This document shows, piece by piece, positions 7,271-7,506 of a stretch of 64,000 nucleotides of DNA. The notes below the pieces were generated by a model that worked only from the letters and a program-made list of their open reading frames with translations, did not search any database and had not been told where the DNA came from. Source of the DNA: an uncultured Eubacteriales bacterium (lineage in GTDB: Bacteria > Bacillota > Clostridia > Oscillospirales > CAG-272); NCBI GenBank assembly GCA_934476315.1, contig CAKSNQ010000004.1:8444-72443 (forward strand), written 5' to 3'. Each line of letters begins with the position of its first letter. Positions within the stretch are counted from its first letter, which is position 1. The position numbers and the translations under genes are program-made.

Positions 7271-7506
7271 GGGGGAGTAAAAAATTCAAAATGAATTTTT
7301 TACTCCCCCGACGACGTTGACCCCGGTGGTTGGATACCGCCGTTTTGCCGCCAAAAGGGTCAAAAAGCCAAGGCTACCGGGGCAAAAGCGACCAAGATCG
7401 CACAAAGATGCCGACATCCCGACCGACATTTTGTGGGGCTGTCGAGGCAAACGTGATATCGCCCGAGTGCGGCGCCATGCTTGCCTCAAAACATCGGGTT
7501 TTTTCA
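7271..7506 (+). repeat. interspersed intergenic repeat, copy A (full length)
   Basis: Perfect 18-bp hairpin GGGGGAGTAAAAAATTCA-AAA-TGAATTTTTTACTCCCCC (7271-7309). Core is GACGACGTTG...CCGCCGTTTTGCCGCCAAAAGGGTCAAAAAGCCAAG...CGACCAAGATCGCACAAAGATGCCGACATCCCGACCGACATTTTG. A second hairpin lies at 7444-7487. Aligns with copies at 30961, 34168 and 45527. Confidence 0.85.

Follow-up and report, generated by a model that had tools for sequence, protein, structure and literature searches.

Small repeats that double as transcription terminators are well studied in Proteobacteria (REP/BIME, ERIC and Correia elements) and in pneumococci (BOX and RUP). REPs have G+C-rich stems and a conserved GTAG-type foot, and Correia elements carry a TA target duplication and constant inverted-repeat tips. 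In E. coli, a 2026 preprint reports about 60% of REPs between convergent, 40% between tandem and 1% between divergent genes, and argues that they are context-dependent terminators and decay blocks (10.64898/2026.03.23.713779). We found no account of such repeats in the uncultured Clostridia of the Oscillospirales type, which are dominant in human-gut metagenomes. Here we describe an interspersed, hairpin-bounded repeat that occurs in five copies, A to E, within a 64,000-nt stretch of DNA (hereafter, the window) from an uncultured Eubacteriales bacterium of the Oscillospirales lineage CAG-272 (contig CAKSNQ010000004.1, positions 8,444 to 72,443).

Judging from its sequence form and position, the repeat is most probably a non-autonomous element of the REP/BIME or BOX type that acts as a bidirectional terminator and 3’-end structure, a reading to which we assign a probability of roughly 0.55. 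The copies in the window are old, fixed and partly decayed members of a two-level repeat family of uncultured gut Clostridia. The lower level is a palindromic hairpin of about 40 nt, in which the G-rich clamp varies and the A/T-rich upper stem is conserved; together with its A- and T-tracts it has the form of a bidirectional intrinsic terminator. At the upper level, two such hairpins surround a core of about 125 nt that is predicted to fold, when single-stranded, into a three-way junction plus a further hairpin, P5.

The family belongs in kind with the known interspersed palindromic repeats, and is not a new kind of system. As in the REP, BIME and REPIN elements of Proteobacteria (E. coli, Pseudomonas), short palindromic hairpin units are repeated in extragenic DNA and vary in sequence from genome to genome, and a composite is built of inverted units around a conserved linker, akin to a BIME. 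The dual role proposed here, of bidirectional terminator and decay block, is likewise one proposed for REPs. The differences are that the A/T-rich upper stem is conserved while the foot is variable and not of the GTAG type, that the "linker", a three-way junction with covarying stems, measures about 125 nt and so greatly exceeds those of BIMEs, and that the host is a Gram-positive gut anaerobe.

Set beside the pneumococcal BOX element (boxA-boxB(n)-boxC) by its published description, the family shows a likeness that is architectural only: both have a Firmicute host, a modular build without an open reading frame (ORF), extensive secondary structure, an expected co-transcription with neighbouring genes, an internal module that can be amplified (here at locus L194) and an apparent history of past proliferation and slow movement now (Croucher et al. 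2011, PMC3049150). BOX, in contrast, lacks an identical terminal palindrome pair and is not known as a stand-alone terminator hairpin, and the bias towards convergent gene ends is much stronger in the elements described here. Regulatory miniature inverted-repeat transposable elements (MITEs), such as the Correia elements of Neisseria and ERIC/IRU, are likewise 100-200 nt long, intergenic and bounded by terminal inverted repeats, and form long hairpins in transcripts that are able to terminate or process mRNAs (reviewed in PMC3184786); unlike in Correia elements, no duplication was seen in our family and the tips covary. Ordinary bidirectional intrinsic terminators, finally, consist of an A-tract, a hairpin with a G+C-rich base and a T-tract, which is the exact form and position of the solitary hairpins and of P5 in this family. 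Such terminators are unique to each site, however, whereas here the same 12+12 nt upper stem is found at many unrelated sites.

Architecture and fold of the repeat

The canonical element is about 202 nt long (range 194-208) and consists of an A-tract, a left hairpin, the core, a near-identical right hairpin and a T-tract, with homology in a multi-genome alignment starting and stopping exactly at the feet of both hairpins. The left hairpin, laid out as a G-rich clamp, GTTAAAAAACTC, a loop and GAGTTTTTTAAC, reads GGGGGTGTTAAAAAACTC-AAAAT-GAGTTTTTTAACACCCCC in the canonical element; the core is composed of GACGACATTGGTCTCGGCGGCTGAACACCGCCGTTTTGCC, a variable stretch of about 35 nt and GGCAAAACCGACCAAGATCGCATCAAAAATGCCGGnnTCCCGACCGGCATTTTTGAG; and the right hairpin reads GGGGCTGTTAAAAAC-ATCGA-GTTTTTTAACAGCCCC. 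The variable G-rich clamp at the hairpin foot takes the form GGGGGT, GGGC, GGTGGT, ATGCGGT and others, the conserved part being the upper stem. The preliminary description, made from the window sequence by itself, had stated that the element has no terminal inverted repeats. This proved wrong, because the left and right hairpins are versions of one palindrome and their outer arms form an inverted repeat of 15-18 nt (GGGACTGTTGAAAAA ... TTTTTAACAGCCCC in copy B; GGGGGTGTTAAAAAAC ... GTTTTTTAACAGCCCC in relatives).

The borders of the element are biased in composition. Across 29 copies taken from many genomes, the five bases on the 5’ side are about 70% A and the first six on the 3’ side about 75% T, and the P5 hairpin is bordered by AAAAA before it and TTTTT after it. 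The form of an intrinsic terminator, that is, a G+C-rich base, a T-tract and closeness to a stop codon, is found in the flank profiles, in the runs bordering P5 and in the left hairpin of copy A. The element has no ORF, since indels disrupt all reading frames. A small-protein reading of the core was rejected because of these indels and because conservation follows the stems. The preliminary description had taken the shared translated string PPFC(R/Q)QK for DNA conservation only.

Folding 27 distinct copies with RNAalifold recovered the left hairpin, P2 (CGGCGG/CCGCCG), P3 (TTTTGCC/GGCAAAA), which encloses the variable stretch of the core, P5 (AAAAATGCCGG/CCGGCATTTTT) and the right hairpin. A long-range helix added by eye (TTGGTC/GACCAA) closes a three-way junction around P2 and P3. 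The bases assigned to these helices pair in 96.3% of the alignment cells, as compared with 42-59% after a shift of the 3’ partners by 1-3 columns, and 21 pairs have changed on both sides, against at most 6 in the slid controls (0/500 shuffles reached the observed values). Covariation backs all six helices, including the long-range one. P5 has been rewritten by subfamily, to GCAGTGG/CCACTGC in a metagenome-assembled genome (MAG) from horse gut and to TTCCGG/CCGGAA in a rumen MAG, and the long-range helix takes the forms TTTTTC/GAAAAA and TTGGC/GCCAA in the same two lineages. No cruciform in duplex DNA can contain a helix with two others inside it, and selection, judging from this alignment, therefore acts on the core in a folded, single-stranded state, be it as RNA or as single-stranded DNA.

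The long-range helix keeps alive the main rival to a terminator repeat, namely a multi-copy noncoding RNA. In this scenario, an RNA of about 200 nt would be cut from read-through or 3’-untranslated-region transcripts, with the end hairpins protective, the junction functional and termination secondary. Besides the covariation of every helix, it draws support from the conservation of the unpaired stretches and of the P5 loop (TCCYGA) across genomes, from the core being never found apart from the rest of the element (46 occurrences inside full elements, 0 outside) and from single-sequence folding of copy A, where each of the two strands outperforms shuffled sequence (z -5.9 and -4.2). The scenario is weakened by the lack of any strand signal in the pairs of the 27-copy alignment (19 G-U versus 19 A-C) and of an orientation preference relative to flanking transcription in tandem spacers (9 versus 6, not significant), as well as by free decay in the window, where copy C lacks the right hairpin and copies D and E lack the core. 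The canonical copy contains no promoter-like site, and a single-stranded DNA intermediate of transposition would explain the same covariation. Neither copy A nor the canonical copy L189 matched a family in Rfam 15, at the gathering threshold or at E <= 10 (best score 24.7 bits against a cut-off of 176), and an Rfam scan of the window returned tRNAs and a cobalamin riboswitch only. On balance, we consider an RNA gene family of this sort unlikely.

Position at gene ends and spread among gut Clostridia

To place the elements relative to genes we called ORFs greedily and counted orthologous sites once, which left 46 full elements. The majority (28/46) occupy convergent spacers, with 15 in tandem and 3 in divergent ones (61/33/6.5%; p = 8e-8 against 25/50/25, chi-square), a placement nearly the same as that reported for E. 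coli REPs (~60/40/1; 10.64898/2026.03.23.713779). The median distances to the two convergent stop codons are 21 and 35 nt, with many of 3-17 nt, so that the element often makes up the entire spacer between them, and all copies, full elements and solitary hairpins alike, are extragenic. Comparison of orthologous sites points in the same direction: at a site filled in two related MAGs (L282 and L283), three more distant relatives (L284, L286 and L287) carry, after the same stop codon, an ordinary terminator of A-tract, hairpin and T-tract with unrelated, site-specific sequence. None of 80 orthologues of the hydrogenase-like gene beside copy A has the element; those inspected have species-specific terminators, and the orthologues share no downstream synteny. 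Orthologues of the L155 site have other terminators and different downstream genes. Among the candidates raised in the preliminary description, the REP/BIME-like terminator-insulator fits best, given the gene 3’-end bias, the A- and T-tract borders and the occupation of a position held by an ordinary terminator elsewhere.

The left hairpin is also an independent repeat unit, a point absent from the preliminary description. Scanning metagenomes for its core (GTTAAAAAACTC, N3-8, GAGTTTTTTAAC) returned at least 120 loci, mostly from human gut and by design selected for this hairpin. Among the matches listed (120 loci) there were 125 hairpins of about 39-42 nt, 37 of them in full elements and 88 solitary. 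The solitary form has the layout of a bidirectional terminator: an A-tract leads into the variable G-rich clamp and the conserved upper stem, and a C-rich clamp is followed by a T-tract. It occurs at convergent (26), tandem (15) and divergent (1) positions, usually 2-30 nt from stop codons. The hairpin was copied rather than evolved independently, because unrelated sites in many species have this 12+12 nt upper stem in common, and the uniformly 5’-G-rich clamps argue for common descent with compensating drift. The alternative that an A/T palindrome was inserted into pre-existing host terminator stems is not supported, all clamps being of this same type. In 905 kb the hairpin 12-mer never occurs unpaired; an uptake-signal-like word of the DUS/USS kind is therefore ruled out, and there is no sign of a classical transposon end.

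Several hairpins recovered in these scans deserve separate mention. Two orthologous solitary hairpins from different samples, at L397:1798-1826 and L453:9428-9456, differ by inversion of the 5-nt loop (GTGCA versus TGCAC), which is the outcome expected from recombination between hairpin arms. A generic hairpin screen picked up two terminators of Neisseria dentiae (L105:2419-2447 and L180:5473-5501) made of inverted GCCGTCTGAA words, that is, DNA uptake sequences, which serve as an incidental control for the pattern of a paired word in a terminator. On an AT-rich, non-gut contig (Ga0315284_10000678), the same 12-nt arms occur twice, 3.7 kb apart and with inverted flanks (L445:6133-6159 and 9850-9876); the enclosed ORFs have no Pfam match, and we judged this pair unrelated, the likeness of an A/T-rich palindrome being probably due to chance.

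Examining a collection of species-representative genomes with exact core patterns, followed by a profile search of the fetched loci, revealed how widely the composite element is distributed. The first pattern (CCGCCGTTTTGCCNNCAAAA) was unspecific, with 3 true loci among 88, and a second one was used instead. The fetched loci contain at least 53 profile matches, 38 of which cover most of the element; among the matches listed, the sources are about 12 uncultured Clostridia or "Eubacteriales" MAGs from Hadza human gut, other human gut, horse faeces and ruminant samples. The family also occurs in many gut metagenome contigs, mostly from human gut, and its true range is wider than the listed genomes. 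The closest genome to the window is that of Eubacterium sp. CAG:180, with 89% amino-acid identity in the hydrogenase-like protein beside copy A. We found no match in plasmid or phage collections, a single pattern match in a viral contig (IMG/VR) being without the element, and a literature search by sequence words found, within the library searched, no relevant paper containing the conserved blocks.

This breadth disposes of the idea that the copies arose by local segmental duplication, which the preliminary description had raised as a possible refutation, or that they resemble each other by chance and belong to no wider family. All that speaks for it is that five copies lie close together in 64 kb; the copy flanks are unrelated, the profile E-values within the window go down to 1e-74, and the family recurs in the other genomes and gut contigs, so that we regard a purely local origin as having practically no chance of being correct.

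Copies within one genome can be very similar. In a tree of 29 copies, those of the horse-gut MAG form a tight clade with terminal branches of 0-0.08, which indicates recent spread or strong homogenisation. Copies A and B of the window are sisters with branches of 0.17-0.24, and are therefore old. Copy D is present, with few single-nucleotide polymorphisms, in every strain-level contig that spans its spacer, and one Hadza-type copy (L133) is present in all recovered spanning contigs. Flank-to-flank BLAST among all fetched loci found no empty orthologous site, and the case for mobility is therefore built on copy number, dispersal and within-genome similarity.

Irregular copies were also observed. 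These include a tandem dimer in which the right hairpin of the first element is the left hairpin of the second (L178:3843-4205; CAKRTQ010000016.1), a copy with about five tandem repeats of a 66-nt or so piece of the variable core (GGGAAAGTCAAAAAACAAAGGCACGCGGCAAA...) between intact ends (L194:1420-1975; CAKRZE010000010.1), and 5’-truncated copies. Contigs frequently break inside the element, and one strain-level Hadza contig of coverage 1.4 (L366:745-979) matches copy D as far as the 3’ arm of P5, beyond which its sequence is unrelated, owing either to an assembly chimera through the repeat or to a rearrangement.

Clustering the ORFs around the copies (45 and then 166 loci) yielded no recurrent transposase-like ORF in 1.24 Mb, where a single-copy gene would easily be missed; the absence of a transposase noted earlier for the window thus extends to this larger sample. 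The recurrent ORFs encode ABC transporters, P-type ATPases, a sigma factor, MATE-type proteins and a paralogous lipoprotein with an endonuclease/exonuclease/phosphatase (EEP) domain, all of them housekeeping paralogues apart from this lipoprotein family. The only ORFs with a hairpin on either side, those of a lipoprotein, a membrane protein and a MATE-type transporter together with a small unplaced one, are ordinary genes. The EEP-domain paralogues, proteins of about 600 residues with the domain at the C-terminus, lie near hairpins at L073:5725-7557, L163:4119-5930 and 13 other loci. Several members end 14-46 nt before a hairpin, and the one at L073 has a signal of the lipoprotein type; these proteins look like surface enzymes, not transposases.

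In several respects the element resembles a classical MITE. It would in that case descend by internal deletion from a transposon bounded by terminal inverted repeats (GGGGSTGTTAAAAAAC), and a DDE transposase whose gene lies elsewhere would move it as double-stranded DNA. The inverted repeats of 15-18 nt are clear, the element is small and without an ORF, its many dispersed copies occur in both orientations and form genome-specific subfamilies; the solitary hairpins would then be mini-derivatives of two inverted repeats back to back, and the positions would reflect tolerated insertion sites. However, the boundaries of the 29 copies show no direct repeat or target-site duplication, as had been reported for the copies in the window. 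Transposases normally need constant inverted-repeat tips, whereas the outermost clamp bases of this family vary with compensating changes. With no unpaired half-site in the 905 kb, no transposase in the 1.24 Mb of flanks and no match in plasmid or phage collections, a MITE origin appears improbable, and less likely than a REP-like terminator repeat.

Hairpins at both ends, the lack of target duplication and a fold that requires a single strand would also suit a palindrome-associated element derived from the IS200/IS605 type, or the remnant of a guide-RNA (omega RNA) scaffold, moved as single-stranded DNA by a TnpA-type HUH enzyme. Against this, the hairpins are terminal, long and perfect instead of subterminal and imperfect, and on the 5’ side of the left end the 29 copies share A-richness but no fixed target word of 4-5 nt. 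None of the copies adjoins remnants of tnpA or tnpB, the elements start 6-35 nt past unrelated stop codons, and the Rfam search gave no match at or near threshold, hence none to the transposon-associated RNA families held there. We therefore give such a derivative little credence, less than a MITE.

Copies in the window

An nhmmer profile built from copies A, B and C detected five copies in the window, of which A, B and C are near full-length and D and E are 3’ partials; a second profile, built from the 29 copies, returned the same five. The window also holds one 20-nt scrap. The preliminary description had counted four copies and a fragment. It had located A to D correctly, with matches far beyond chance (E-values from 4e-74 to 9e-11), and its conserved core blocks are visible in the four-copy alignment, but it had missed copy E. 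The copies have a G+C content of 41-56% in a window of 60%, and the window itself contains no solitary hairpins.

Copy A, delimited by profile match (7256-7505, E = 4e-74), alignment and gene context, is a full-length element of 243 nt at 7271-7513 (+), its length being due to a nested insertion in the right hairpin. It ends at the foot of that hairpin, and not at 7506 as previously given. On one side of the copy lies the stop codon of the hydrogenase-like gene (7532, - strand), and on the other are the promoter and cobalamin riboswitch that belong to the next operon on the - strand. Its left hairpin (7271-7309, +) has a perfect 18-bp stem with a G/C clamp and an A/T core (arms 7271-7288 and 7292-7309; -26 kcal/mol). 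GAAAACA precedes it, such that the - strand reads the hairpin followed by UGUUUUCUU, a terminator-like arrangement that scores as a predicted terminator for the hydrogenase-like gene. In the core (7310-7434, +), P2 is CGGTGG/CCGCCG and P3 is TTTTGCC/GGCAAAA, the long-range helix (TTGACC/GACCAA) is degenerate, and so is the P5 hairpin (7408-7429), which is followed by TTTTG. The right hairpin (7435-7513, +; GGGGCTGT...CACAGCCTC, then GTTTTTT) holds in its loop the nested hairpin at about 7443-7487, with the loop TCGCCCGAGTGCGG. The riboswitch (RF00174, 35.7 bits) is at 6958-7099 (-), directly downstream of copy A on the - strand, and a strong promoter-like site (TTGACT, 17 nt, TATAAT; 7185-7157) separates the two.

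Copy B is the best preserved in the window, a full-length element of 201 nt at 30948-31148 (-) with a profile match at 31163-30926 (E = 1.5e-72 with the three-copy profile and 2.7e-48 with the 29-copy profile). Its left hairpin (31148-31107, -) is a perfect palindrome, of 42 nt and not 40 as first described; the earlier reading of a perfect 18-bp stem in A and a decayed one in C stood. The right hairpin is at 30982-30948 (-). Copy B lies between the stop codon of a GH38-type gene (31182) and the promoter of a cluster of three tRNAs (30394-30844, -) directly downstream of it; this promoter (TTGACA ... TATGAT) begins about 30 nt past the right hairpin.

Copy C (34168-34342, +; profile match 34152-34369, E = 3.7e-61) retains a decayed left hairpin (34168-34208, 84% complementary), the core and P5, which reads GTCGG AATCCCGA CCGAC followed by TTTTT; the right hairpin has been lost after GGGCTAT. 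It sits upstream of the GH38-type gene (31182-34205, -), such that B (-) and C (+) flank this gene in inverted orientation with both left hairpins facing it. The arrangement recalls a composite transposon, and may be a coincidence.

Copy D (45530-45645, +; profile match 45550-45629, E = 9e-11) comprises the 3’ part only, with P5 at 45550-45567 followed by TTTTT, the right hairpin at 45576-45645, and possible decayed 5’ remains at about 45503-45549. It lies between convergent genes for a DUF3792 protein and an RlmA-like methyltransferase. Copy E (62462-62563, -; profile match 62462-62564, E = 3e-08 with the 29-copy profile) consists of a P5-like hairpin and a right hairpin (62503-62462, GGGCTGTCAAAAAACTC...GAGTTTCTTAACAGCCC) in a divergent spacer, 29 nt upstream of a - strand gene start. 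The statement that all copies lie at operon boundaries accordingly holds for A to D, whereas E is in a divergent promoter region. The 20-nt scrap at 39004-39023 (-), just past the stop codon of a - strand gene, resembles P5 (GTCGGAATCCCGATCGGACA) and may be a remnant of the family, its length being too short to prove common descent.

What had been described as an optional terminal hairpin is the regular right-end hairpin, lost in C and carrying a nested extra hairpin in A and D. This insert of about 45 nt (7443-7487 in A; 45583-45624 in D) has a 14-nt loop common to both copies (TCGCCCGARTGCGG). Two stem positions differ between A and D on both sides with pairing kept, and the inner stem of A has decayed. 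Within the window the insert is found only in A and D, and it is absent from canonical copies elsewhere.

A model for the family and its meaning

If the family is indeed a terminator repeat, the element would be co-transcribed with its neighbours, and its modules of hairpin plus U-tract would stop RNA polymerase arriving from either side. Sense transcription would end at the right hairpin, antisense transcription at the left one and either of them at P5, and the hairpin structures would in addition protect mRNA 3’ ends. New copies would be made at terminator-type sites by an enzyme supplied in trans, which, like RAYT or IS200-type transposases, would probably recognise hairpins in single-stranded DNA, and recombination between copies may keep them homogeneous.

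Several observations weigh against this model. The first hairpin met from either side lacks a U-tract, and termination would therefore occur only after polymerase has crossed part or all of the element. The conserved three-way junction of about 125 nt exceeds what a terminator needs and may point to another role, be it that of an RNA or of a structure recognised during mobilisation. No mobilising enzyme was found in the 1.24 Mb around the copies, and the spanning contigs recovered showed no strain-level empty site for copy D or the Hadza-type copy. The bias towards gene 3’ ends, moreover, could reflect purifying selection on tolerated insertion sites rather than function.

A more far-reaching version of the model would make the hairpin a REPIN-like unit of Gram-positive gut anaerobes, spread by a hairpin-specific enzyme to become the standard bidirectional terminator throughout a clade of human-gut Clostridia, to which the composite adds a three-way-junction RNA released from the 3’ ends of many unrelated mRNAs. 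A domesticated transposase, present in single copy and active on single-stranded DNA, could be that enzyme, and the outcome would be a dispersed family of terminator-borne RNA genes. We regard this extension as possible, if doubtful.

For the annotation of these genomes the family has immediate consequences. It breaks short-read assemblies, several contigs ending inside copies, creates spurious ORFs such as that of the PPFCRQK string, and fills many convergent intergenic spacers, so that a model of it would improve the annotation of these MAGs. It also offers an example of a terminator that arrives by copying instead of evolving at each site. Should there be a mobilising enzyme specific for the hairpin, the partnership between host and element known from REPIN/RAYT systems would extend to Gram-positive gut anaerobes.

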